Below, piece after piece: positions 1 to 59,496 of a stretch of 64,000 bases of DNA. Position 1 is the first letter of the stretch. Each line of letters begins with the position of its first letter. Location: positions 93,186,001 to 93,250,000 of the forward strand of contig OZ024745.1 of NCBI GenBank assembly GCA_964016885.1, in the 5' to 3' direction. The notes under the pieces were generated by a model. The model had not been told where the DNA came from. It ran no database searches and saw only the letters and a program-made list of their open reading frames with translations. A program made the position numbers and the translations under genes. The stretch comes from Eledone cirrhosa (lineage: Eukaryota).

Positions 1-2458
1 ACAGCAGATAGACCACCTGACCATCGGAGCGCGTCCCTTCCACAAAAAGCGAAAGAGCAAATGCTCCAGCGCAGTCAGGCGAGGCTTAGGACAAAGCACA
101 ACGGTGTACGCATTTGCCACCTCTGCTTGACCTTTCAGGGATAACTTCCTCTCTGCCCATTTCTGGGTGAGAGAAGCCACCCTGCTCGTCACCTCGTCTC
201 AGTTTTTGTCCGTCTGGAGATCCGGACCGAACCAGACTCCTAGCAATTTAACTGGTCTGTCCGTCCAGCACCCGACGACGCTGTTGGACGACATGGACCT
301 GCCTCTCCAGGTGCCAAGCTGCAGGCCCACTGACTTTTCCTGGTTGATCATTGCTCCTGTCACAGCTTCGTATTCTCTTAGTGTAGTGCTGATCGCCTCG
401 ATGTGTTTGGCGTTCGACACCACTGCGGTGACATCGTCCGCATATGCTGACACGGATCTTCCACATCCTAGTTTGTGTGGGCCCCCCCTCAACGTTTCCA
501 GTTTGTACAGTAATGGCTCGATAGTGAATACGTACAAGAGGGACGAGAGAGGACATCCTTGGAGGACCGAGCGCATGATGTTGAATGGTTCTGAAAGGTG
601 ACAATTCACTCTCACCACAGAGCAGATGTCGCTGCTGTGCATGGCAGCGATCCAGCCTCTGAAGACGGGCCCAAAGCCAGCCGCCCTCGGGACTGCTGCC
701 AGATAACGATGGTCGACCCTATCGAAAGCTTTCGACTGATCTAAATTGATCAAGGACCCACCTGTGCCAGGTTCCCTAGCTACTCTCTGCATGATGTATC
801 GCATGAGGTGGGGGTTGTCGTGGATGGATCTGTCTGAAATGGAGCATGTCTGCGCCTCTCCCACCAGACCACCAACGACAAGCGCCAACCTCTTTGCTAG
901 CACCTTGGCCAAAATCTTGAACTCTGTGTTTAGCAGAGTTATGGGCCTGAAATTATCTATGTTATCCCCCTTGTTCGGATCCTTTCTCAGCAGCACTACC
1001 ATTCCTCGGCTCACAGAGCTGGGAATTCTCCCGTTCTGTTGCCAGTTGCAGTAGACGTCCGCCAAGAGGCCTCCGAACAAGTCTGGCATCTGTACATAAA
1101 GTTCATAGAGCAGACCATCCAAACCAGGCAATTTACCCCTTGTGCAGCCAGTCATTGCCTCCCGTACTTCAGCGGCTGTTATCGGCTTTTCGCAACACTC
1201 CGCCTCAGTGGCCGAGAGCCACGGCAGTCCGTCACGGTAGGCACTAAAGTCCATCCCTCGACCCGGCCCACCGCTGCCCCCGAATAGCTGAGCGAAGTGT
1301 TGCTAAAAAGCTTCACACATTTGTTCGGGATCGAGTAGCATGCTCCCGTCATGGTCCACCAAATACTGGATCGTGGCTTTGTTGCCACGGCGCGCCTCCG
1401 CCACTCGGGCCCATTGAACGGCTTTCGTCCCCTCATGTCTGAGAGCACGCACCCTATCTCTGACAATGCAACCTTCGTGCTTTGCATTGAAGAATTGGTC
1501 AAGGGCCAATTTTGCTGCAAGTACGTCGGTGGCGATGCCTTTACTAAGCGCCTCGTCTAATTTTCTAACTAGTTCTCCCTCTGCTCTATTTTTCTCTATT
1601 GCTAAAGCCTTACTAAACATAATGGACTCTATTCTAATCACTCTTTTCAGAGCAAACCCCCATTTGTTGTTGACGATGGCGCCCGCCAACACCTGCTTAA
1701 CTAATTCGCTAATCCTGTCTCTGTAGGCCTTGCGCGCTGTTAACGACGCGTTTAGCTTCCAGTAGCCAGGTCCTTGTCTATGAAGCCTATCTAAGTTAAC
1801 CTCACAGATCACGAATTGGTGGTCCAGGTAGTCGACTATTTTGAAATATAGACAGCCTATGCTAGACCTATCTATTTCCCTACAAAATACCCTATCTAGA
1901 TATGATCTGGATGATCCGATGCAGTTTGACCATGTCCACATTGGTAAATTCAGGAAATCCAGACGGTACCTGTCAGACAGTTGAAACCGTCTGAGTAGGT
2001 TTGTGAGGCTTTTACACCCTCCTCCCCTATCCGCTAATCCCACACAGTCCCATCATGCATCTAAGATCCCGTTCCAGTCACCCACTAACACTAAAGAAGG
2101 TCTCCAGACGCCCTGTAGGGGCATAGACGGCCACTAGCCTGAAAGCTTGCCTGTCTCTACTGGTCACGTCCAGCACCACCAACTTACCTTCTGGGTCCAG
2201 GAAGATGGCTCGTATGGCGAAATCCAAATCTCTTCGAAAAAGCACAGTAACTCCTCACCCCGATCCAGAACAGCTGGGAGATGCGTACACATCGTAGCCG
2301 CCGAAGATCGGTGTGAAGGCTCATGCTTTGGAGATTCTGGTCTCGCTGATGGCCACCACATCTATGTTTAATGACCTAAGGTCGTTGAGCAGGTGGCCCT
2401 GCTTCCATGACGACCCCAAGCCACGCACATTTATGCTGCCTATTCTGAGTGAGGTCAT
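1..2458 (-). pseudogene. Disrupted ORF2 (AP endonuclease + reverse transcriptase) of the Tx1/L1-like element
   Basis: ORF-track pieces 1303-2043 (end of EN, linker) and 199-1254 (RT domain with YADD) lie in different frames. Confidence 0.9.
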
Positions 2459-7709: not shown

Positions 7710-8232
7710 GCGGGAGAGAATTTGTTGGTTTAGTAAGAGAGGGTGAGGTATGTAGTGGGATATAGAGAGAAGAGAGTTTGGTAGTATAGTGAGAGAGGGG
7801 TAATTGTGAGAGCGATAGTGTGTAAGTATGTAGTGGGATATAGTGAGGGGCAGAGAGTTTGATGTGCTAGTGAGAGAGCGGGAATTACGAGAGTGATAGA
7901 GACTGGGATAAAGAGAGGGGAGAGAATTTGGTGATCAAGTGCGAGGGAGGGAATTGTGAGAGAGTGAGGTATGTAGTGGGATATAGAGGTGGCAGAGAGT
8001 TTGGTGGTTTAGTGAGTGAGGGAGTGGGAATTGTGAGAATGATAGAGAGTGAGGTATGTAGTGGGATATAGAGAGAGGGAGGGAGTTTTATGGTTTAGTG
8101 AGAGAGGGGGAATTGTGAAAGGGGGAGAAAGGTATAATGTTTTAGAGGGAGAGAGGGGTAATATTTTGAGAGAGCGTGACAAAATAATTGTAGGAGGGAT
8201 GAAAATGTTCTAAAATTGGGTTTCACAACAAA
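7710..8232. repeat. Degenerate GA-rich tandem repeat of an interspersed element; related pieces at 7150-7270, 10230-10345 and, inverted, 38970-39250
   Basis: Recurring GTGAGGTATGTAGTGGGATATAGAGAG and GAGAGTTTGGT motifs. Confidence 0.6.
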
Positions 8233-8239
8233 GTGGCTG

Positions 8240-9362
8240 TGTATATGAGTGTGTGTGTTTATATGTATATGTGTGTGTTTGTGTGTGCATGTTTATATAT
8301 ATGTATGTGTGTTTGGATGTTTCTATATATATATGTGTGTGTTTATATATATGTGTATGCCTGTGTGTTTATATATATATATATGTGTGTGTTTATATAT
8401 ATGTGTATGCCTGTGTGGTTATATATATATATATGTGTGTTTATATATATGTGTATGCCTGTGTGTTTATATATATATATATGTGTGTGTGTTTATATAT
8501 ATGTGTATGCCTGTGTGTTTATATATATATATATGTGTGTGTTTATATATATGTGTGTGTTTATATATATGTGTATGCCTGTGTGTTTATATATATATAT
8601 ATGTGTGTGTGTTTATATATATGTGTATGCCTGTGTGTTTATATATATATATATATGTGTGTGTTTATATATATGTATATGCCTGTGTGTTTATATATAT
8701 ATATATATATGTGTGTGTTTATATATATGTGTATGCCTGTGTGTTTATATATATATATATATGTGTGTGTTTATATATATGTGTATGCCTGTGTGTTTAT
8801 ATATATATATATGTGTGTGTTTATATATATGTGTATGCTTGTGTGTTTATATATATATGTGTGTGTTTATATATATATGTGTATGCCTGTGTGTTTATGT
8901 TTATATATATGTGTATGCCTGTGTGTTTATATATATATATATGTGTGTGTGTTTATATATATATATATATGTGTGTTTATATATATGTGTATGCCTGTGT
9001 GTTTATATATATATATATATGTGTGTGTTTATATATATGTGTGTGTTTATATATATGTGTATGCCTGTGTGTTTATATATATATATATATGTGTGTGTTT
9101 ATATATATGTGTGTTTATATATATGTGTATGCCTGTGTGGTTATATATATATATATGTGTGTGTGTTTATATATATGTGTATGCCTGTGTGGTTATATAT
9201 ATATATATGTGTATGTGTTTATATATATGTGTATGCCTGTGTGTTTATATATATATATATGTGTGTGTGTTTATATATATGTGTATGCCTGTGTGTTTAT
9301 ATATATATATGTGTGTGTTTATATATATGTGTATGCCTGTGTATTTATATATATATATATAT
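8240..9362. repeat. Compound minisatellite: GTGTATGCCTGTGTGTTT(AT)n(GT)n units of about 50 bp, about 20 copies
   Basis: Read directly from the sequence. It accounts for the three spurious 370-411 aa C/V/Y/I ORFs. Confidence 0.95.
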
Positions 9363-9363
9363 A

Positions 9364-10225
9364 CTAGCAGTAAAGCCCGGCGTTGCTCGGGGTCACTCAG
9401 TAGCTGTGTTAAAGTTACAATGTTAAGTTTCTTTCTTGGCTTAAAAACTGTAGTGTCTACTGTGCAGACTTGCATGTGGTGTTTTTGATTAATATTCCCT
9501 CAACCAACAATATGCCTTATGAAGTTAAGAAAACATAACGATAACCCGAATGTTATAACAAAAGAGGATGCTGGGGATAGAAACTGCACTGGTTACTTAT
9601 TAACAAAGATCGAAAATGTAAACACTGCAACGCAGAGAAAAACATTAGCGTAACCAAATTATCAGTTATGTCTGTCTGCACGCCTATATCACCTCTCTGC
9701 ACGACTGTCTGTCTGCACGCCTATATCACCTCTCTGCACGACTGTCTGTCTGCACGCCTAACGACGAAATATTTGCTTGTTTTACGTAGTCTTTAAATAG
9801 ACTTGTTTTCAAGTAAAAATATTGTTTTAAAATGCTTTTAAATGGAAATGAAGCCAAACGGAAGCTTAGTGTTCGAACTGATGAATTTTGTAGGTCAATA
9901 TTTTGCTGGCTCGACAACTGTTCGTTCGTGTATTGTGTTAATGTCATTTTAAACGCTGAGAAAGCCAGCGTAATTTTTTACGTAAGGCGCTCAATGTAAA
10001 CAGAACAAAGGGAAATAACTGATAACTTACGCTCAAAAATCGATACATTATATTCGATTTCGTCAGATAGGGTGGGTCAATTTGAAATTTTTTTTTTCCG
10101 ATGTCTTCGCTAGGGCTCAATGTACAAGTATAGCAATTTCGGTGCAATTCCGTGAGAGATTCTAAGAGGAGATGTGTGCCAAAAATCGATAGACAGACAG
10201 ACAACCACAGTTTTATATATATAGA
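9364..10225 (-). mobile_element. Non-autonomous Helitron (862 bp)
   Basis: On the minus strand it begins A|TCTATATATATAAAA followed by (CTGT)n and ends with hairpin CCCGAGCAACGCCGGG and CTAG|T. This is an A|T insertion with no TSD. An internal tandem repeat lies at 9669-9758. Confidence 0.85.
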
Positions 10226-10483: not shown

Positions 10484-10600
10484 CATCATTATCATCATCA
10501 TCGTTTAACGTCTATCTTCCACGCTAGCATGGGTTAGACGGGAATTGTCCCATTTGAGGCAAGATTGAGCGGGTGACCGTGTCTCGCTGGTATAGGACTG
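10484..10600 (-). mobile_element. 3' fragment of an RTE-tailed SINE; family members at about 14722-14990, 15844-16120, 16445-16590, 33768-34030, 36514-36680, 38143-38450 and 42720-42990
   Basis: (CAT)n-CGTTTAACGTC...TTCCACGCTAGCATGGGTTAGACGG is shared among the copies. Confidence 0.75.
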
Positions 10601-10636
10601 TATATATATATATATATATATATCCAGTTAGACCGA

Positions 10637-10668
<32 letters not shown>

Positions 10669-10670
<2 letters not shown>

Positions 10671-11030
10671 AGTGGGTCTAACTAGGAGTTACTGCAGGTT
10701 CACCCGGATGAGCACTCGATGTTTAGGTTCACTTCTGTGATGATGTGTAGAGCTATACAGAGTGTTATATATAGAAAGGATAAAAAGGACGATTGATTAT
10801 TCCTGCATTGCATTTATTGATAGGTGACGCGCGTTTCGCCACTGATCAGCTCAAGGTTCGATCTATATCGATCCTACCCGACTCAATAATCGGCAGCTCG
10901 ACGGACCCTCTTAAAATGCATTGAGTCGGGTAGGATCGATATAGATCAAACATTGAGCTGATCAGTGGCGAAACGCGCGTCACCTATCAATAAATGCAAT
11001 GAAGGAATAATCAATCGTCCTTTTTATCCT

Positions 11031-11040
<10 letters not shown>
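10669..11040 (-). mobile_element. Penelope-like pLTR / retrozyme-type element with an inverted duplication, inserted in (TA)n
   Basis: Inverted arms 10767-10887 and 10920-11040. Contains a hammerhead-like motif and is homologous to 26862-27170. Confidence 0.7.
10822..10910 (-). ncRNA. Type I hammerhead ribozyme motif with a degenerate core
   Basis: Minus strand reads GGGT-CCGTCGA-GCTGCCGATTA...TGATCAGTGGC-GAAAC-GCGC-GTC-ACCT. The core differs from CTGACGA at two positions. Confidence 0.6.
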
Positions 11041-11101
<61 letters not shown>

Positions 11102-11126
11102 TTTATATATATATATATATATATAC

Positions 11127-11205
<79 letters not shown>

Positions 11206-11221
11206 TATGTATGTATATATG

Positions 11222-11292
<71 letters not shown>

Positions 11293-11338
11293 ATATGTGT
11301 GTGTGTGTGTATGTATGTATATATATATATATAAATAT

Positions 11339-12147: not shown

Positions 12148-13120
12148 ATCATCATCATCATCATTTTACGTCCGCTTTTCCCTGCTTGCAAGGGTGGGAC
12201 GGGTCTTATTCAGCACAGCATCTCTCCACTCGTCATGGTCCTTTGTCATCTCCACCGTGAGCTTCAATGATCTGAGGTCTGTTCTCACCACCTCCGCCCA
12301 TGTTTTTCGTGGTCTACCTCTACCACGTCTTCCTTCAACTGGCATTTCCTGGCACTTCTTCACCCATCGGTCATCCTCCATGCGCATCACATGTCCATAC
12401 CACCTCAGTCTCCTCTCCCGTACACTACATTCTATCCCTCTCAGACACAGTTTCTCTCTCAACACATTTATGCTGGGTTGTTCGCGCACATTTACACTGC
12501 ACATCCAATGGAGCATGCTTGCCTCATTTCTCTCCAGGCGTCGCATATCCTCTGCAGTTGCTGCCCATGTCTCACTACCATGCAGCATCGCGCTCCTCAC
12601 ACAGGCATCGTACAACCGGCCTTTTGTACGCAGGGAGAAACCCTTCTTCGTCAACAGAGGAGGCAGCTCCCTAAACTTCTTCCAACCCGTCCTTATTCTA
12701 GATACTATGGCCTCGGAATACCCTCCTCCCATGCTAATCTGATCACCTAGGTACCGGAAGCTATCCACCACTTCCATAGCGCCCTCCTGCATTTGAAAAA
12801 TGTGTCTATCAATGCAACTTCTACTGTCTAATTTCCCTGTACATCTACTGCATACATATTTCTCCCTACCTGTTAGTTTGCCTGCTATCCCGCTACATCT
12901 CTTGTGTACCCAAGATCTGCATTGTGTGCATTTTATAGAATTTATGCCAGTTCCTTTTCTGCATATCGAACATGGCCATTTCCGTGACGGAATCAGCGTT
13001 TTGTCCTCTTTTCTACTCATCAACACTTTTGTCTTAGCTAGGTTCACTCTCAGTCCTCTTGATTCCAACTGCTGTTTCCATAGCCAGAATTTATTCTCTA
13101 GCTCCTCTACTGATTCTGCT
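12148..13120 (-). mobile_element. 5'-truncated RTE-clade LINE (RT thumb, PHD-like Cys/His insert, C-terminal domain, (TGA)n tail)
   Basis: Open 300-aa ORF 12166-13068 contains GLRVNLAKTKVL, CSIC...CTQC...HKRC...[29 protein letters not shown] and GRPRKTW. Confidence 0.9.
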
Positions 13121-13547
13121 TTCTCTTTTTTCTGGGTTAGAAAATGTTTAAAACAAAATATTTTACTTTGTGTGAAGTGTTAAGGTATTAGTTAATTTAT
13201 TTATTAATTAACAATAGCATTTATTTATTTATTTATTTATTTATTTATATATTTAATAATTGTCTATTACCGGTTTCAGCATTTTATGCATTATCAAAGG
13301 GGGGAATTTGTATTGGTATAAAATGTAGGATAGAAGATAAGGTGATGTTGAACATGTTAATGAAATGGGAAAGAAAGAATAATATTATTAACAAACAAGG
13401 TATTTGAAGTAAAAAAAAAAGGGCTGATGTGGAACATAATAAGGTAACGGGAAAGAAAGAATCTGTTAGACACGCAGTGACTAACAACAGAATGTTTTAA
13501 GTCTGCGTGTCTGACATATATGCATAGCTTGTGAATAAAAAATTCAA

Positions 13548-14190: not shown

Positions 14191-14635
14191 ACTAGACCTG
14201 AAAAATGCGCAAGCTCAAAAGAGCCACAGAATGTTATAATAAACCTTCAAAAGTGTGGGACTAGAGTTGTTGCTCAAAAATATTGTAATCATTATCTATT
14301 GTACACTCTGTGGCATCCTTTTATAAAAAAGAGACTCATAACGAACTCAAGACGACACGATAATTATTTAAGTGAATTTATAATATAGAATTCGGTTTAA
14401 GTGCATTTCGTATTAATCATTACTAAACATCTAATATGAGATATTGAACATTAGCTTAAATAATTATCGTGTCGTCTTGAGTTTGTTATGAGTCTCTTTT
14501 CATAAAAGGATGCCACAGAGTGTATGATAGATAATGATTACAATATTTTTGAGCAACAACTCTAGTCCCACACTTTTGAAGGTTTATTATAACATTCTGT
14601 GGCTCTTTTGAGCTTGCACATTTTTCAGGTCTAGT
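14191..14635. repeat. Long palindrome/foldback with arms of about 181 bp (14191-14372 and 14455-14635) and an 82-bp spacer
   Basis: The arms are reverse complements with only a handful of differences. No convincing TSD. Confidence 0.9.
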
Positions 14636-18102: not shown

Positions 18103-18765
18103 GGCATAGGTTAAGAATAACGTCCTCGAAACTGAAAGTAGGTTTTCTGACACGTGAATGTGTTTTTTTTTTTTTTTACATTGAAATTTACGATACACTC
18201 TTTGTTTATTTACAACAGGTCTCTATAGTGATATGGTGTTAGTTAGTATTGCGTGTGTGATTATTTTCTCTTATATATATGTGTGTGGGTGTGTATATGT
18301 GTGTATATATATGTGTGTCTGTATGTATATATATATGTGTGTTTGTATATATATATGTGTTTATGTCATCATCATCGTTTAGATGTTTTTGTAATATCTT
18401 GCCAAAGTTGGCACCAACTATAAACAAATTAAGTCCGGGTCATAAGAAGGACAGAGAATGATAAGGGATTTGGGTAAAAACATCTAAACGATGATGATGA
18501 CACAAACACATATATATATACAAACACACATATATATATACATACAGACACACATATATATACACACATATACACACCCACACATATATATATATAAGAG
18601 AAAATAATCACACACGCAATACTAATTAACACCATATCACTATAGAGACCTGTTGTAAATAAACAAATAGTGTATCGTAAATTTCAATGTAAAAAAAAAA
18701 ACAAACACATTCACTTGTCAGAAAACCTACTTTCAGTTTCGAGGGCGTTATTCTTAACCTATGCC
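18103..18765. mobile_element. Mutator-like (MULE/Foldback) non-autonomous element with TIRs of about 290 bp
   Basis: Arms 18103-18390 and 18476-18765 start GGCATAGGTTAAG. Exact 9-bp TSD GATAACAAT at 18094-18102 and 18766-18774. Confidence 0.88.
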
Positions 18766-24138: not shown

Positions 24139-26861
24139 CTGTGTGTGTGTGTGTGTGTGTGTCTAACATTTATTTTCCTTTGTTGACAAATCAATGGAAT
24201 TAATTTTTTTATTGTCATTGTCCATTTACTTTTGTAAAAAAATGTAATAAATTTGGTAGTAATGTAGATAGACCGAAATAAATTAAATTTTCTGAATTCG
24301 TTAAATGCCGGCTATATGCTTTCTCCCTAAAGGAAAAAAACAAAAACAAAAAAAAAAGACCACAACGTTTCTAATAAGATGTAAGTAGATTATAATATTT
24401 GTTTTTTTTATAATGTATGGGTTAACATGTAGGCCATGATAAATGTCAAATATTGCTGTGTTAGGCGTTTACAAAAATTACTGCCCTCATTTTTATTTAT
24501 CCATTTCTAAAAAAAAAGGAAATACATATTATATATATGTATATCTTCATTCCTAAGTGTTTGTTCGGAAGTTCAAAAAATTAAATTGCCCATAGCCGAC
24601 TTAACTACATTATTTAATAAACAAAGGAGTGTAAGAAAAAAAAAATGTTCTGTTAATTAAGATAAGCAATTGATGATGGTAGTAAGGAGCCTTAAATAAT
24701 TTGTGAATGTTGTAAGAGACCTTGCCACATCCCGACATTGACTCATCTACACTCACTTACAGATTTACCTTTACATCTCTCAGGTACTTTTATATCGCAT
24801 TTTTTTTCTCATTTTTGTTGTAATAATGATAATAATTATTATCACTTTAGGAAAAGTGTCTCCAGGCTTTAAAGTGTATTTTATTTATCTAATTTTACAC
24901 GCAAAACCATTCATAATCTATCTGTAAATTCGCCTTTGTCTAAAGTCGACTACTATGTATGTAATACAGACTGACTTCCTCTTAACATCTCTTACATCCT
25001 AAAATCATTATTATTTAGATTTATTATATATCTAAATATAATATTTCTTTGTTCTCATTACATTCAACACATATATTCCATATTTTCAAATGTTATTTTT
25101 ATTTCGTTTATATTTCAAAACCTGTTTTCATTATTTGTTTGTTCTTATAAGTGCCTGTCTTGTCAGATAACGCTTGTAATATTTGTATTTATTTAAATTT
25201 TCTTTGTATGTTCAAAATTATTCACATTTAAAACTAATATTTAACCTTTTTAACATCACATTCTAAATCAGACATTTAGTACGACGTACGAAACCTGATA
25301 TGTCAGAATTATTTTTTCAATAGCTTCAAACATTAGTTAAATTTAGGTATAAGGAGATCTAATTGTCATATTTGGGAATTTCAAATATATATATATATAT
25401 ATAAAACTAATACTTCTCTACGATAATGTTTCTAAATGCATTTGTCCACTTTTCCCCCCGCCTCCAGGGGTTTTACAGGTATTGATCAAGTAAAATTATG
25501 GTCATTTATGCGTTCATTTCAAATGGAAAATAAGCCGCCGAATTATTATTTATTTTAAAGAAATGTTACTTTTCTCTTTTATATTTGTCATATACTTATT
25601 TAAGAAATACATAACTTTCATATTTCAAACTCCGCATGTTTTAACATTACATTTCAGAATAGTTCAATAATGAAAGCTATCAGAACATGGTTTAAATTAA
25701 GCTATAATAAATATGGTATCAACACATCACATTATCATTTACTAAAATTCCCCACCTAGAGGTTATCCCTTAAATAATAATAGTTTATCATTTCATATAA
25801 TTACCTCTCTTTGGTTTTACCATTTTCTTCTCTTCCAAATTTTTATCTAATTAGTTTATTTATTTTCCTGCAAATTCTTCAATATTAACTCGGGAAAAGA
25901 AATTACATCATTATCATGGTGGATTGGCAGTATCGGTAGAGGGACGGACGCCATGCTTTCCAGCATAGTTACGTCCCTTTACGATCTGAGTTCAAATTCC
26001 GCCTTTCATCCTTACGGGGTCGATAAAATAAAGTACCAGTAATGCACTGGGTAATTGCTGGCCTTGTGCTTAAAGTAGAAGCAATTATCATTTAACATTT
26101 ACTCTCCCTGCTAGCATAAGTTGGACAGGTTGTCACAGACCAAAGTACCAAATCGGAGGCACTGATCTCTTAGATTTGGCAGGGGTCGCATTTCGCTTAC
26201 TCTGTATTGCACATTTTATTGTGGCACTAACACGAGAGTTGTCATGTCTTTGACACAATGTAAGAGTCCTCTTTACTCCTTGTTTTCTACAGCTGGATGC
26301 TCTTATACACACACACACATATATATGTATATATATACACACACACAGAGGGTTGGGGCGGGGGATTCTTCAGTTGTATCAAAGACATGACAACTTCCTT
26401 AGTGCTGGTTCCATATACAATGCCCTCAGTGCACTTTTTAGACTGCGGAAGTGTATGTAAGATGCAAATGTATCCTTGCTAGCAGGGAAAATGACATTAA
26501 ATGATGATATATATCATTGTTTAATGTCCATTTTCCCCTGCTTGCATGCTCCGATGGATGTGTAATAGTAATGGTAAAGTTTAAATAAACTGAGAGAAAC
26601 TAGGCATAAAAAGGGTCAGATGCAGTGTGAAGGAGAGGAGATTAGGGTGGTATGTACATGTGATGCATATAGAGGATGGTAGCTGTATAAAATGGTGCCG
26701 GGTGTTTGAAGTTGAAGCATGAGATGAAGTGATAAAAGCTGACCATGCACAATTAAACCTATCAAAGGTGATGACAGGATTGAGATCTCTAGCGCTATGT
26801 AGTACTGTAGAAGACCTGCCATCCATTTCCCCTGCTAGCAAGGATATATATATATATATAA

Positions 26862-27170
26862 TAATAATACAAGGACAATTTGTTAAGCCTTCATTACGTT
26901 TATTGATTGGTGATGCGCGTTTCGCTATTGATCACCTGAAGGTTCTGATCTGTATCAATCTGGCCTGACTCCGGAATCAAAAGCTCGTCAGACCTCTGCT
27001 CTTGTAAATAGCGTGCGTCACTAATCAATAAACGTAACGAAGGCTTAACAAATCGTCCTTATATTATTATATTTACTCTGTTTAGCTCTATACCTCGCTA
27101 CTGATGTGTACCTAAACATCGAGTGCTCACCTGGGTGAACCTACAGTAACTTCACGTTACACTACCTGGA
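26862..27170. mobile_element. Second Penelope-like pLTR / retrozyme-type element with an inverted duplication, in (TA)n
   Basis: Arms about 26862-26919 and 27012-27071. The tail CCTAAACATCGAGTGCTCA..GGGTGAACCT.CAGTAACT...CTGGA(TA)n matches the 10669 copy. Confidence 0.7.
26909..26994 (-). ncRNA. Type I hammerhead ribozyme motif with intact CUGACGA and GAAA core boxes
   Basis: Minus strand reads GGT-CTGACGA-GCTTTTGATT...GATCAATAGC-GAAAC-GCGC-ATC-ACC. Stems I and II pair. The cleavage triplet is AUC here and GUC in the other arms and copies. Confidence 0.72.
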
Positions 27171-34049: not shown

Positions 34050-34610
34050 TGCGTGACGCCAGAGGTTACGGTCGTGTGTCATTGCCTTTGAGAGGTGTAA
34101 TTGGGTAAGGTCGGCTTTTATCACCCCATCCCAGGTCATCCGCGGTTTCCATCAACTTCTAGTGCTCTGCACCTTTTTATGCACCTGTCATCCTTCATAC
34201 GCATCACATGTCCATACCAGCGCAACCGCCTCTCCTGCACACAGCATTTGATTCCTCTTATGCTCAGTCTCTCTCTCAATTCATTTATGCTTTGTCGTTC
34301 ACGGATATTACTGTTACACATCCATCGGAGCATGCAGGCTTCATTTCTCTCTAATCTACGTAAGTCTTCCACCTTCAGCGCCCAGGTCTCACTACCATGC
34401 AACATTGCTGTTCGGATACACGCATCATACAGTCTGCCTTTCATTCTGAGGGAGAAGCCTTTTGCAGCTAGCAGTGGTAGTAGTTCCCTAAACTTCTTCC
34501 ATCCCGTTCTTACCCTAGTTATTGTACTTTCTGAACACCCACCTCCGCTGCTAATTCGGTCACCTAGGTAGCAGAAGCTGTCTACTGTTTCTACAGAGCC
34601 CTCCCAGAGA
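34050..34610 (-). mobile_element. RTE LINE 3' fragment
   Basis: ORF 34136-34444 [20 protein letters not shown]...[12 protein letters not shown] is paralogous to 12166-13068. Confidence 0.88.
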
Positions 34611-35972
34611 TTGGTGGTACTTGTTTCCTGTGGCTTTCTGTAACCTTCATAATCTGATCAAAACGATTTGATGCCTCTGTAATTGTCACATCTTTTGAAG
34701 TTCAGCATGTAGGATCAGCTCTCATCACCTATGTCTACTTAATATTATGTAATAAACAATATTTTCATATATTAGATGTATAGAAGGGCATCTAGCTTTT
34801 GAAATTTTATTTTGTTTGGACAATTCCATATACATAAAAATGTTAGTACAATCTTATAGTTACTACAAATTTATGGAACTTTGTGAGCATTTTTGTGTCA
34901 TCAATTGTCAACTAGCATGTAAATCAAGATAAAGATAATACATATTTGTATAATAGATTTGTTGTTGTATTCTATAATATAGCTGGAAAACTTTGTTCAG
35001 ATCTGCTTTGTTATATATAAATGTAAAGGTTACATGGAATTCAGTAACTTTGTTTTTATCACTGTTTTGTCTGTTTTTGTCTTCGCCCACTTATTCCTGA
35101 GAGGGTTGTGGTGGCAGAGTCCTCAAACGCTCATTCCAATGGGTCCTGTCAGAAACAACTGTCTCCAACTGATCCGGCTGGATCCACAACCGAGACCAGT
35201 TAAGCTCATGGATGTTATCCAACCATCTTGTTCAGGGTCTACCCCTGGGTCTCCTTTGATTTTGCCTGTATAATCTGTTCAGTGTTTCTTTTCTGAGATA
35301 TTCTAACCACATGCCCATATTATCGGAGCTGTGATCTCTCAATTCGGCGAAGTAGCAACTCTACCTGAAGTAACTCTCTGATCTCCGAGCTAAGCACTCT
35401 ATCGAGTAATGTTGCTCCAGAGACCCTTCGGAGGAACTCCATGTATTCGCGATCGCATTCTTTCAGTCATTACCCAAGATTGATGATCATAGGTAAGGGT
35501 TGGCATGAATACTGAATTGAAGATAGTGAGTTTGTCTTTTATGGCTACCTCTCTTGTTTTTTGTTTTGTTCAAAATTCATCCTCTCTTACTTTTACTGCT
35601 GTTATAACAACTTCTACTCTGATCCACCAGTATTTACCATTTCTTCTAAAGGCACAACCCTCACGATGTTAGTTTCTCCTCATCCTCTTAGTCTCACATT
35701 GCTCAATGGCATACTTAACATTTTCTGCAATATTCATTTCTCAGCAAAGTTTCCTTTGGAATTTATTTCCTACCTACCACAGTTCAAATTGAATATTAAT
35801 CACACTAACCTCACTCTGATTATTTTCTTGTATAGAATGACCAATGGCAGTGCTAGTTTTAGTTAGACTAACTACTAAAATGAAAAATGTAGATATTTAT
35901 AGTTAGATGTTTTATAATTTTTAACCGTTTTTACTTATATGTATTTTTGAACCTTTATAATTGCAGATAAAT

Positions 35973-47400: not shown

Positions 47401-48025
47401 TACATTGAGTAAAAACATTACTTATAGATAGAAAATGAGTATCTTGTATTTTATTTACATATAAAATAAATTCTAGTGAGGTGTACGTATTTGCATATTT
47501 TTGTACCAGTTACAAACTTCCAGGCTGATTATTATAAAATTGAAGGTTACCAAAGAAAACAAAAAGAATTATTTGAAAGCTATAGAGGAGGGAGGGGTGG
47601 AGGAATGTTTGCTTGTAGCATTATTCAAGTTTCAGGCCTAAAGCTTATTTAAAAGATTCCTCTCAGACAGCTCTTACATTACATACCAAAAGCTAGATAT
47701 TTATTGCATTCTTAAAATATAATCTATTTTGGTGCTAATCTTAATATTTAATTATCAACATTCAAAATATTAATTTAATGAATTATTGAAAGAAAGGATT
47801 TAGATTTTACAACAGATTTCGGATTAAAAAAATAATAAAAAATCTAGGTACAGTATAGTTAGAAGTTAAAATAATTTTCCTTATCTAAGTCAAAGTTTTA
47901 GATTCTTCAACATGGTTTGCTTTGGGATTTACTTTCTACATAAGCAAATTTCTTTCTAAGGCTACTTGCAGCTGTTGCTGCTGATAAGTATATCATTAGA
48001 TTCGATTATGTTGTCCATCATATAG

Positions 48026-48391
48026 GACCTACACCAAATGAAAGCTCTGCTCAGACGCCAGTGCCATCTGCCATTACTGCTCCGGATCGTCCCGGAAGCC
48101 CAGACAGTACATCAAGTATTAGCTCTTCTGCAAGCAACCAATATCACTTACAACAGCGCCAGCAACTTTCACATCAGCAAGCTACTCCCTCACCCATCCC
48201 AGCACAAGGTCTTTCTCTTAATCAGCAAATACCTGTTAGCAACACTGCTGGCCACCCACAGTATCATATAAACCCACAAGCACAGCGAACAGTTAATCCT
48301 GGTTCTCTTCAACCTGGCCAGCAGATGGCTCCAGCAATGAGATATCCAGCTCCCCAAACATTCCCACCTAATACTGCAGTACATCAACCAG
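48026..48391 (+). CDS. TFG: TFG coding exon 5 (Ser-rich region and start of the PQ-rich region), 366 bp
   Basis: (G)PTPNESSAQTPVPSAITAPDRPGSPDSTSSISSSASNQY...AVHQP; DRxGxPDS matches TFG. TATAG| acceptor, G|GTGAGT donor, phase 1-1. Confidence 0.9.
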
Positions 48392-51299
48392 GTGAGTGTT
48401 AATGTTACTATGTATGCTGACAAGTTCAGGTGGCTGTTTGAATAACTTTTTAATCCCCGGCTGCTTAATAGAATTTTCTTTCTTTTATATTTATTATTAC
48501 TAAACAAATATATACACAAATTCCTCAAAGTGGATGGGAAAGTAAAAAATTAAATATTTTTAAAGAATCTTTATTTTTCTTTTAGGTAAGGACTTTATTT
48601 ATACTATTGACAGAGAACTATGCCTTGGAACTCATAACAATCTGCAAGCATATTGAGATAAATTTAGATTGGTAAATTAACAAAAATTAGAGAAACGTTT
48701 GATTGAATGAGTTGAAAATGAAATAAGGAAAAACTGCTATGATTTAATAATGGATATATTCATAGATGCTTGTTATTTTGGGGGAATAAATTTTGTTCTG
48801 GGATAATCCCTCTGTAAATGTATACCCTTAACTGATTGTCATAATTTCAATATAGATTGGATTTAAAATTGATTTGATTAGATATAAGATATTTGTGTAG
48901 CTTTGAAATTATAAAGTGGAGCACCAAAGAGTTAACAGATAAGGCCTCTTTTGTTAAAACCAATAGAAATACCAAATGAAATGGTTGTCAGGATTTTGCT
49001 TTATCTCTCTAATCTAATTAAATTCTTTGCTAATCTCTCCTCTTGTTCTTTATCATTTTTTAAAAACAATATGGTGGCTAAGACAGATATTGCTTAGTGA
49101 CTGTAAAGATTATATGTTGATACATTCATTGTTTTGTGATTTTAAGAAACACTCAGTATTTACAAAAAAAAACTTTGTCTCTGTTAACCTTATTTATTAT
49201 GTTATGTCTTAGTAAATCATGTTAAGACTGATCCAATCTTTGTCATCCTCAGGCATTATATTTCATCATATATATATATAAAAAATATAACTAACTCTTT
49301 CCTTTAGCACTCATAATAATTAATCTCAGAAATTTAGATATATAACACTCATTACTATTTTTGCCTCAATGAACTTATTTGAAAAGTGGTATTAGCATTT
49401 AGGAAGGACATAAAGCTTTTAAAGTTAATGTTTTATTAAGAATTCTTACTTTGATAATATAGGAAAGGGATTTAAAACTGTTTAAAAAAAAAACGTTATC
49501 TGCAAAATTGCACAATATTTTTTATGATGGTAGCGTGATTTGAAGCAGATTTAACTGCTATTTCTATCTGTTTGAGCAACCATATAGGTACTTCTTCTTT
49601 AGTTCATCTGGTTTTGTAGTTTCAAGATATATTACTGAGCATTTCACTGTGTAACTAAGTTTTGTATCTTTCTGCCTGACAAATATCAGTTTGTTGAGTT
49701 AGGCAGCCACATTTCTTCCTGAGCACTGAACTTTAAAAGACCCTTGCTCTCTGTTTTGATCCTTGTGTGTCTTTATACACAGCTCCTCCCACTTCATATA
49801 ATATACAGATTACAGATTTGTTCATCAGCTGTATTGAATGAATTTCTGAGAGTCAAGGCAGAGATGAACGATCTACAATAATTAATTGATCCGTAAATAT
49901 TTGTTTAGTTAGGCCACTCTGAGTTCATATTTGTAACTTGAGAATTAGGGCAGTAGTTTAATTTGTTAATCCATTGACACTCATCAGTTCAAGAAAGTTT
50001 GATCTGCTGAGTTTCTAGTTTAAGGGAAATTGATGGGAAATGTAGTGCAGATTATATTTAATTAGATAGGATAGTACTTAATTATTGTGCATGTTACAGA
50101 ACATCCAACATTTTTGAGTCGTCTAATTGTTGTAAGTTAATGGAAATCTTGTTGAGCATGCTTGTAGTATGGAGGGAATCAACTAAATGCTTGGAAGCAA
50201 CTTCTTGGTTCAACACTTGAGATATCAAAATATTACTCTGTGGAGTGCTAACTTCTTGCTTCAACATTTGATAAATCAAAATATAATTCTTTGTAGTATT
50301 TGATAATGTGGAGTGCAGTGTAGCAAATATTTGTAAAGGAGTGAAATAACAACTGATTACATAATAGTAAACCATCATTTTATTGCTGTGGTTTTGTTTT
50401 TAAAAACATCACAATGATGAAAATTTAATGACTAGATTCTGAAAAGTACACAAACCTTATTACTTACTTGTTACTTAACTGTAGCACACATCATAGACAT
50501 TTTAAATGGCTGATCAAATTTTTAATTTCTTAGTTTAACCCTTTCATGACCACATTTCTAATGAAATACACTCTATTTTAATTAACTGATGAAGAATTTT
50601 GAGGGATTTACTAAAATTATTATTTCATTACTAAGAAAGTAACTTAATATAAGATTCGTATATAAAATTATGTTGGAAGATTTTAATTTGAATTGGAAAC
50701 CTTTAAAATAGGTGGCTTTATTTCATAGAACCAGAGCCAATTTTGGCCAGGTTGGTAACTAAAGGGTTAAAATGAAAAACTAAAAAATACATGTTAGATT
50801 TTAATACCTGCTTCTTATCTAAAACTAATGTATACATTAATCATGTATATTCCTTGCTACCTTCTAAAAGCATGTTGAAGCTGTATAATATTTAATTGGG
50901 TTCAATATATCAATGCTGAAATAAAATATTTAATATTTTTTACTTTTCCATCTCTTACCAAACAAAAAAAGGGGGAATAGGTCTCTAACATTTAAAACAG
51001 ACTTAATATATAATATACTTCTTTTTCTAATTGAAGTTATTTATCTTTCCCCTTATTAATGCTTATTAAAACTTATCTGCCTTTCTTTATCCTTCATTCC
51101 TTCTTGCTGCATGCTTTGGGCGTCTTTCTTTACATTAATTAAATCTTACTAGTAGCTATAACATGCAAAAATCTTCAAATACATAGCACATATTCTACGT
51201 TGGTTGCATTTTAATGATCTTGGACAACAGATTTCATTTGGTGAAAAATTATGTATATTGGACAATGCTGGTGCAATTTAAATTTTTCTTTTTTTGAAA

Positions 51300-57679: not shown

Positions 57680-58065
57680 ATGTTTGCTTGGTACTAATAT
57701 GAAGGATGCATGGATTTGCCAATTATGGGTTTTGTTAATTTTTGCAAATAAGTGCAGCATATTTCTGCTTGTCTATCATATTTCTAAAGTGGTAATTCTC
57801 TCAGTATATGGCCTGTTCAATTTTAATGAAATTCTCCTTCTGTCACTTGCTTACAAACTGTCCTAAGATTTAACAATTTATTAGTTCAATTTATAATTTC
57901 CTCTAGTTGTTTCAAGTCAGGTTTTGTAGAGAATATGTTATGGTGAGAAATGTTATGAATGTTCTGTTTTGTTATTTGTTGTCTTTATCAAATTGAAATG
58001 AAGAGAAAGCTAAGACAGAAAATACTTTAAAGACTACCTTCATGGATTTAAATTTCTATTATTAG

Positions 58066-58352
58066 GTTATCAAGCACAGCAAACACCCCAACAACAACAA
58101 CCACAACAACCTTCACAACAGCCACAGCCACAGCCACAGCCACAACAACAACAAATACCCCAACAGCAACAACAATTTTCTGGACCAACAATGCCAGGTC
58201 AGCAATTTCCCCAACAACAGCCAACTTCAGCTCTTAGTCCTTTTGGTTCTACTAATCAAACCAACCAACCAATTCAAAATTTTAATTACCCGGCAAATCC
58301 ACAGCAACAGCAACAACAACAGCAGCAACAAGCTTATAACCCTTATCAACAG
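58066..58352 (+). CDS. TFG: TFG coding exon 6 (Gln/Pro-rich low-complexity region), 287 bp; absent from the ORF track; the CDS continues beyond the window
   Basis: (G)YQAQQTPQQQQPQQPSQQPQPQP...QQQQAYNPYQQ is in frame with exon 5. ATTAG| acceptor, CAG|GTAAGA donor, phase 1-0. Confidence 0.88.
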
Positions 58353-59496
58353 GTAAGATAACTTTTGTTTCTTATGCTTATTTGACATAAAACATTTCAA
58401 AGTTAACTATTAGAAGATAAATTAGAATATTTGTTGAAAAATGGTATTTTAATGAAAAATATATATATATATATATTTTTTTTTTCTGGTATATTCTAGT
58501 TCTTCAAATTTTAAATCTTAAAAGGAAGGTCTTGAAAAAATTCTATTTCTTTCTAAATTAAAAAAATAATAATTAGATTATGTAATTGATCCCTCTAGAC
58601 TTAATCACCTGAAATGTTGAACGAGGCATTAAGATTTAGACATTTTTATTTGGGTATTTGATTTTTTCCTCAACTTGGATCTTAATTTTACATATCTTTA
58701 GTTATAATTTGTTTTTCTCAAACATAAATTACTTTATGAATCTAATACTTTTCATATATGGAAGGACAAAAACAAACAAACTATTTCTGTCATTGTAAAA
58801 ATAGCACAAAATTTGTAGAAATATCTCTTTACTAATAAATATATATTTTTTTTATTTATTATTGCATTGATTAATAGTTATTTTGAAGAAAAACAATAAT
58901 TACATATAATTTTTACAAAATATTTAAACTTGGAAGGGACATTTTAAGCCTAGTCCTTGATCTGGTAGATTTGAAAATGATGACAGTTATTACTTTTAAT
59001 TATAAGAAAAATAGTTATTTATGGAATGAACACAGCTCAACAAGTTCACCTGACTAATCCTTTAAAATGTTGGTATTTCATAATAGTTATATTAAGGCTA
59101 ACCTACAATCCTATTAAAATCTACTAACCCATATAATTTTAACATGTGTCTAATAGTGAATTTATTTATTTATTTATTTATACAAATTTTATTATTGATC
59201 TTCTATGGAAGTTTATTTTTCATGGTTATTGGGTTTACTTTACGTCTATTAAAAAGGTTATTTCTGTATCTTGAGAAAAGAAAGACAAACTACAAAAAAC
59301 GACAGCAACTATGCATATATATATTTTTTTTCTTTCAAATTTTCTCAAAGCTTGTATCAATTTAATGTGCAGCAGGATTTTATAACCAACCATTCTTTCA
59401 TTATATACTATTGAATTTAGCCATTCAATGTTTATTGCACATAGTAGTATATATAAGTATTCATTGGCATCATTCTATTGACATTAACTCTTGTAT

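Follow-up and report, generated by a model that had tools for sequence, protein, structure and literature searches.

At about 10.9 kb in the window (the whole stretch of DNA analysed, 64,000 nt from Eledone cirrhosa), a near-perfect palindrome built around a degenerate hammerhead core raises two questions: (i) what kind of element it derives from; and (ii) how its inverted halves came about. (TA)n runs and decayed retroelements abound in the window, whose DNA is of animal origin and rich in AT. We think it likely that a Penelope-like retroelement (PLE), probably a Hydra-related one, inserted its hammerhead-bearing 3' end (pseudo-LTR) here in 5'-truncated form, as two partial copies placed head to head in (TA)n that end at different points of the element, 97 nt apart.

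Anatomy of two insertions in (TA)n

The two arms measure 121 nt, differ at 3 positions (97.5% identity) and enclose 32 nt (Table 1), in agreement with the near-perfect arms of about 120 bp around a 32-bp spacer described in the initial annotation. The degenerate core CCGUCGA that it placed within this spacer is there as well, on the minus strand (10904-10898). The spacer is not a separate piece, because it is the 5' continuation of the long (minus) arm. Read on the minus strand, the locus runs from a leader through stem I, the core, stem II with an inner hairpin and GAAAC-GCGC-GUC to stem I again, then through AATAAA, the AT-rich end 1, the 97-nt tail and end 2 into (TA)n. The plus arm repeats the part from the interior of stem II through end 1, followed by (TA)n. 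Both outer ends of the insertion thus lie in (TA)n, the setting originally proposed. The head-to-head junction falls at 10919/10920 and shows no clean microhomology, a point against our main reading.

Table 1. Features of the 10.9-kb insertion, and the second insertion of the family, in window coordinates.
Feature	Position	Strand	Remark
(TA)n left of the small insert	10601..10623	.	
16-nt insert derived from the element's tail end	10624..10639	.	12/13 letters shared with the tail end
(TA)n target next to end 2, the tail-bearing end	10640..10668	.	
One-sided tail, 97 nt	10669..10765	-	76% identity across the tail-bearing arms of both loci
Bulged stem (predicted), ACTC-stem-TC-GAGT, directly following end 1, the tail-less end	10714..10763	-	
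Left arm: inner stem II, stem III, GUC, AATAAA (10818-10813), to end 1	10767..10887	-	
Type I hammerhead layout	10822..10908	-	Descriptor and pairing; cut predicted
32-nt spacer: 5' part of the long arm, stopping 15 nt upstream of the core	10888..10919	-	
Right arm: tail-less copy, starting inside stem II (without the core) and ending at end 1	10920..11040	+	
TA-rich microsatellite right of the insertion	11034..11333	.	
Second insertion of the family	26853..27170	.	74-76% identical to the copy at 10.9 kb; (TA)n at either side

Two 3' ends are present at both loci, and (TA)n borders each locus on both sides, so that a target-site duplication (TSD) is unreadable within it. At 26.9 kb, the tail-less arm carries a complete hammerhead on the minus strand (core CUGACGA at 26991-26985, AUC triplet); the tail-bearing arm is on the plus strand, begins in stem III and extends from about 27008 to 27170, with a tail of about 100 nt. 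The overlap of the two arms is 85% identical. The loci had been called mirror images, each with a full, tail-bearing unit and an opposed partial copy. The tail-bearing arms do lie on opposite strands at the two loci, but 26.9 kb lacks a full unit with a tail: the complete hammerhead there belongs to the tail-less arm, and its tail-bearing counterpart begins only in stem III. The complete hammerhead would lie on whichever cDNA ran further, the tail-primed one at 10.9 kb and the other at 26.9 kb, which would explain the apparent mirror image.

A short interspersed repeat at 10484-10600, with at least 14 relatives in the window, is cut off at the TA run left of the 10.9-kb insertion. In an attempt to reconstruct the empty site, paralogues of this left-hand repeat continued past 10600, and the continuation was not found right of the insertion. 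Directly beside the TA run that holds the 26.9-kb insertion, short inverted termini (TCCTTGCTAGCAGGG) surround an RTE-like fragment (26473-26846). A long inverted repeat at 14191-14635 is 97% complementary over 139 nt and continues inward; it is MITE-like and has no hammerhead match. At 18103-18765, inverted arms of 264 nt include a TA/TG microsatellite and a piece of a catcatcat repeat, and are flanked on both sides by the same 9-mer (GATAACAAT), which looks like the TSD of a DNA transposon. Elsewhere in the window we note a decayed non-LTR element at 199-2052 (minus; RVT_1 match, E 1.3e-24), a tandem TG/TA-rich minisatellite with units of about 50 nt at 8200-9370, a PHD-finger match at 12166-13179 (minus; E 3.1e-06), and two Q/P-rich open frames resembling host-gene exons, with no Pfam match, at 47944-48402 and 58014-58361 (plus). 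The stretches at 12166-13179 and 34136-34657 (both minus) we take to be RTE-like 3' fragments.

The hammerhead and its kinship

On the minus strand at 10.9 kb, the core is preceded by the 5' strand of stem I (10908-10905) and followed by a 60-nt stem II (10897-10838) and by GAAAC-GCGC-GUC (10837-10826), with the predicted cut at 10826/10825. A relaxed type I descriptor matched the 64-kb window exactly twice, at the two loci, versus 0-2 matches (mean 0.4) per shuffle in 10 shuffles. Stem II had been said to differ in sequence from the 26.9-kb copy and still to pair, which proved correct: its strands, GCUGCCGAUUA/UGAUCAGUGGC, are paired at 10 of 11 positions. The inner motif, of the type GAU(C/U)GAUA.AGAUC, is also kept, as a GAUC..GAUC hairpin in both copies. 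The claim of covariation in stem II stands only in part. One of its 11 basal pairs has changed on both sides and one on a single side, and six are invariant, but three are broken in one copy and only two copies are compared. Across all stems, the two sequences show one two-sided change in 21 pairs; a shuffle control gave 248/500, a figure that is uninformative with two sequences, and the fold z-score of stem II is -1.9 at 10.9 kb and -0.8 at 26.9 kb. The pattern in stem II fits conservation, which two sequences cannot prove.

The Rfam model Hammerhead_1 scored 21 and 16.6 bits at 10.9 kb against a cut-off of 34 (covering 10952-10991 and 10816-10855) and had no match at 26.9 kb; across the whole window, Rfam returned only microsatellite and hairpin matches, below gathering scores. 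CUGAUCA at 10960-10966 on the plus strand, in the 3' strand of stem II, is one letter off the hammerhead core, and the weak Hammerhead_1 matches probably rest on it.

The core of the 10.9-kb copy carries U4C and A6U, with a GUC triplet where the 26.9-kb copy has AUC. Among family copies in public sequencing runs, the loose-end consensus of 52 contigs of run X1 has the canonical core. In summed depth, which is not copy number, GUC accounts for 83,660 of 93,829 at the position of AUC, and X1 contigs aligned across 10903 are canonical in only 172.5 of 23,124 (these values come from 40 of 117 rows, with position 6 outside them). RAD reads of X21 across 10903 are canonical in 104 of 188 cases, all with at least 10 other differences. 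From these counts, we infer that U4C is common to the subfamily of the 10.9-kb copy. Hammerheads with U4C are less active yet can sustain a viroid in vivo, and activity is low when A6 is changed, although the available text does not mention A6U itself (PMC3088659). Because both positions are affected, the 10.9-kb ribozyme is predicted to be nearly inactive, and probably is.

Inverted truncated copies, one-sided tails and (TA)n targets are described for PLEs (PMC8557442, PMC3846280, PMC11167929). As far as the accessible text of these papers goes, an inverted 5'-truncated copy with a one-sided tail of 30-40 bp is described, as is (TA)n for Hydra and Naiad (PMC8557442), and the head-to-head arrangement is the usual one in PLEs (PMC3846280). 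Insertions of EN+ PLEs share with both window loci the head-to-head inverted 5'-truncated copy, and further the one-sided tail, the hammerhead in the terminal repeat and a microsatellite target that would hide a TSD. They differ in tail length (97 nt here versus the published 30-40), in that both arms are very short here, and in that the unit contains no ORF. Together with the lack of an ORF in the unit, the absence of a GIY-YIG family match from the 11 window ORFs scanned (of 54 listed) counts against the main reading. The minimal PLE hammerheads of Cervera and de la Pena (2014, PMC4209133, available text) resemble those of the window in their 4-bp stem I, in G10.1-C11.1, in a palindromic helix III that would pair as a dimer, and in copies 100-700 bp apart on opposite strands. 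They differ in that stem II is much longer here, with an inner hairpin, in the U4C/A6U core of the 10.9-kb copy, and in that no extra nucleotide stands between 9 and 10.1 here.

A Hydra-related driver is likely. The Hydra clade (Craig et al. 2021, PMC8557442) has the (TA)n target and a type I hammerhead near the 3' end, traits common to other clades, and by eye an AT tract followed by a bulged stem, RCTC-stem-NN-GAGY, as in Hydra-2_Amil and Hydra-2_Ajap. It differs in stem II, which measures 60-61 nt here versus at most about 25 nt in the accessible part of File S2, and in stem III, here GAAAC-GCGC-GUC. The protein motifs reported for the clade are RWK, DKT and CxCX5C, with no CCHH (PMC8557442). 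The published Hydra-1_Obim, as available, has a different hammerhead and 3' end, its consensus ending without the bulged stem, which counts against the main reading. Four motifs of the window had no match in the accessible Craig supplement (PMC8557442), where line breaks could hide one. The family was not found in the published sets searched; it may be catalogued in Repbase or in the supplements of PMC4209133, PMC11167929 or the preprint cited below. A metagenome scan with an 18-nt tail motif returned four loci with only isolated 19-20-nt matches, and a viral scan with the hammerhead pattern two GC-rich loci with only 14-16-nt matches; all were rejected. PMC13282606 makes no mention of 'hammerhead' or 'retrozyme'.

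The bulged stem ACTC-stem-TC-GAGT occurs in both tails, starting from 10763 in one and spanning 27075-27124 (plus) in the other. Its pattern has two other matches in the window, and 0-2 (mean 0.7) per shuffle in 10 shuffles. It appears in the consensus fold of both tails, with no two-sided change between the two copies, and the tail at 10.9 kb folds no better than its shuffles (z +0.5), two points that count against the main reading; the z-score at 26.9 kb is -1.95. Behind the hammerhead, inspection by eye shows an AT tract and GCTC-stem-NN-GAGC in Hydra-2_Ajap and Hydra-2_Amil and a looser version in Hydra-1_Crog, while Hydra-1_Ajap has two such stems, at its 5' end; none was seen at the 3' ends of Hydra-1_Amil and Hydra-1_Obim. 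By this comparison the stem is found in 2-3 of the 6 Hydra consensus 3' ends, and is not a published criterion for the clade.

Family copies and the origin of the inversion

Evidence at the level of the family comes from contigs and reads of public sequencing runs aligned to the two window loci. The 10.9-kb reference at 80% recovered 3,790 contigs of X1 and 606 of X4, and the 26.9-kb reference at 85% recovered 4,860 of X1, 4,622 of X2 and 456 of X4, where X1 and X2 are the same sample and X4 carries another organism label. X7 gave 0 contigs on the 10.9-kb locus, a zero that can be false. The unit belongs to a high-copy family.

Inner breakpoints vary among these copies. On the 10.9-kb reference, nine joints were seen: five cross between the arms at other breakpoints, three skip within one arm, and one is the locus's own junction, present in one X1 contig (joint 10884-10919). 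Among the best 15 of 86 joints on the 26.9-kb reference, 11 cross the arms, two are uninterrupted tail-bearing units and two stay within one arm. Two points count against the main reading here: 5 of the 11 crossing joints come without the letters that lie between, and no contig is long enough to include both outer ends. Three contigs (joints 10720, 10730 and 10752 to 10823/10983) skip from just 3' of the predicted cut into the tail, and may reflect a deletion or a diverged subfamily. The initial annotation also asked where breakpoints fall relative to the GUC cleavage site; none lies at GUC or at the predicted cut among the joints listed (nine, and the best 15 of 86).

The inversion breakpoint takes many positions among the other copies, and the arms are therefore not terminal inverted repeats (TIRs) of fixed length. 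This bears on a reading of the palindrome as a MITE or foldback DNA transposon with 120-bp TIRs and a TA target duplication, for which one could cite the near-perfect inverted arms, the TA flanks, the lack of coding capacity and the other MITE-like inverted repeats of the window. The repeat is not terminal, however, as 97 nt of family sequence lie outside one arm; the spacer continues one arm, the hammerhead layout is kept, and arm length as well as breakpoints vary between copies. Instead of the TIRs of fixed length with a DNA-transposon TSD that had been named as the contrary outcome, we found variable breakpoints and a one-sided tail, which largely refute the DNA-transposon reading and leave it with hardly any probability. 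Inversion is supported as a recurring product of insertion. The proposal that it belongs to the insertion mechanism thus holds with respect to the crossing joints and their differing breakpoints, although it is not new, being already published for PLEs.

In a different origin of the inversion, a single cDNA (or an antisense template) would fold back and prime itself or switch template, and the two target strands would not both serve as primers. One published proposal for head-to-head repeats is self-priming on an antisense template (PMC3846280, available text), and the 97.5% identity of the arms at 10.9 kb would agree with it. At 26.9 kb, however, the second arm extends further 5' than the tail-bearing one, an outcome that a single cDNA folding back would not readily give; a fixed tail-less end is not readily obtained in this way either. 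Among the best 15 of 86 joints, 10 of the 11 that cross have a plus arm beginning within the tail (27079-27136), although for three of them, at 27112, the position may simply be where the alignment picks up again beyond a diverged loop. The arm overlap at 26.9 kb, at only 85% identity, also speaks against it, though age could explain the divergence. We regard the single-cDNA origin as improbable.

The ends of the copies bear on the nature of the unit. Of the X1 contigs that reach end 1 on the 26.9-kb reference, 58 continue into the tail and 19 finish in other sequence, and hence both end types exist. Some RAD loose ends at end 1 (X22) abut short AT-rich flanks and not long (TA)n, which counts against the main reading. 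At the other side, long arms frequently reach only about 6-30 nt beyond the core in the 5' direction, close to a TTCATT motif that loose ends of both subfamilies share; this clustering of 5' limits is biased by the reference end and by short contigs. The TTCATT of this family presumably resembles an initiator element.

Such limits could mean that the unit is a short non-coding passenger, retrozyme-like and about 170-290 nt long, which lacks an ORF and depends on a borrowed Penelope-like enzyme, with the same insertion chemistry. Beyond the long-arm limits lie TA-rich letters resembling end 1, and one RAD loose-end class (131 reads, agreement 1.0, possibly one locus) passes from end 1 into the beginning of another hammerhead; this suggestive arrangement resembles the head-to-tail dimers of retrozymes and counts against the main reading. 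Animal retrozymes have been proposed to be non-autonomous PLE derivatives, often monomers (bioRxiv 10.64898/2026.07.22.740005). Metazoan non-LTR retrozymes are likewise short, non-coding and present in high copy number with a type I hammerhead, but the accessible text defines them by head-to-tail arrays and circular RNA, whereas the copies here are head to head with a tail (PMC7229834; bioRxiv 10.64898/2026.07.22.740005). The window holds no head-to-tail array, and no tandem joint occurs among the nine and the best 15 of 86; some loose ends continue upstream with shared letters (places 10908 and 10919), and the bias in the 5' limits weakens that argument as well. A passenger is the less probable reading, at perhaps one chance in several, and we retain the truncated 3' end of a PLE as the preferred one.

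Proposed twin priming and the small insert

How a PLE would produce such a structure can be outlined as follows. The GIY-YIG endonuclease of the element would cut both strands of the (TA)n site. Each 3'-OH would then prime reverse transcription on the element RNA, one at end 2, the tail end, and one at end 1, whose start lies a few letters 5' of the bulged stem that would position the enzyme. Both cDNAs would run toward the 5' end of the RNA, stop at variable points and be joined head to head. At 10.9 kb, it would be the end-2 cDNA that went beyond the hammerhead, with the end-1 cDNA halting within stem II, and at 26.9 kb the roles would be swapped. Ribozyme cleavage would not be needed.

There is a biochemical parallel in the Poseidon enzyme, which cuts and extends both strands of AT-rich DNA, and starts at two internal RNA sites that delimit the tail, hammerhead cleavage being dispensable (PMC11167929). 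Poseidon_Ac in vitro (Frangieh et al. 2024, PMC11167929) therefore shares with our outline the two start sites that delimit a tail, the AT-rich target and the use of both strands. It differs in that its start sites lie near each other, within the ORF, in an AC-rich stem loop, and an inverted junction is not modelled in the published account as far as covered. A search of literature on twin priming and recent PLE mechanisms found nothing relevant beyond PMC11167929 in the text available.

We tentatively propose a more specific version, to which we give somewhat less than even weight: twin priming would start from each of the cut ends, at a pair of fixed RNA sites that RCTC-stem-NN-GAGY stems define, the two window loci would be the two possible outcomes of a race, and the U4C-core subfamily would have been widely amplified with its hammerhead kept for a structural role more than for cutting.

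The 16-nt insert in the TA run to the left also derives from the element. Its right 13 letters give the match to the tail end (about 0.0004 such matches expected at the borders of the window's 131 TA runs). It had been described as a tiny back-to-back pair of element ends, of which the derivation from the element stands; the left 'end' consists only of CCAGT, whose AGT is shared with the right half, and three readings are available, a pair among them. Two occurrences of GACTG-(TA)n-CCAGT, 10596-10628 and 10635-10673, stand on either side of a 6-mer whose reverse complement is 10675-10680. We lean toward a local template-switch duplication(-inversion) of the large insertion's left end, on the arrangement of these letters. 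A strand would stall after CCAGT, copy back via the AGT microhomology and return via the ACTG shared with the left flank; two template switches, at microhomologies of 3 and 4 nt, would give every letter, with one mismatch resolved to the flank's base.

An independent micro-insertion is the somewhat weaker contender. It could be two tail ends back to back, which we hold to be rather doubtful, or a single tail-end stub, which is more doubtful still. The 12/13 match and the flanking TA runs would suit an independent origin, and the left CCAGT is in phase with the element's end. On the other hand, a pair needs two substitutions and a stub two substitutions plus a deletion; both changed letters equal the left flank (GACTG then TA, 10596-10601); and two tail ends would break the pattern of one end each seen at both larger loci.

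As an object, the 10.9-kb locus is an ordinary decayed transposon stub; its value is as a natural product of Penelope-like insertion. The pair of loci in the window shows both outcomes expected from priming at both cut ends, and touches on open questions of that process: the cause of the inversion, the determinants of the two ends and the role of the hammerhead. The bulged stem and the U4C subfamily offer two concrete targets for work in vitro. If the proposal above is true, the amplification of U4C copies would be a sign, in vivo, that a hammerhead with a long stem II serves enzyme binding or the formation of RNA dimers through the GCGC palindrome.
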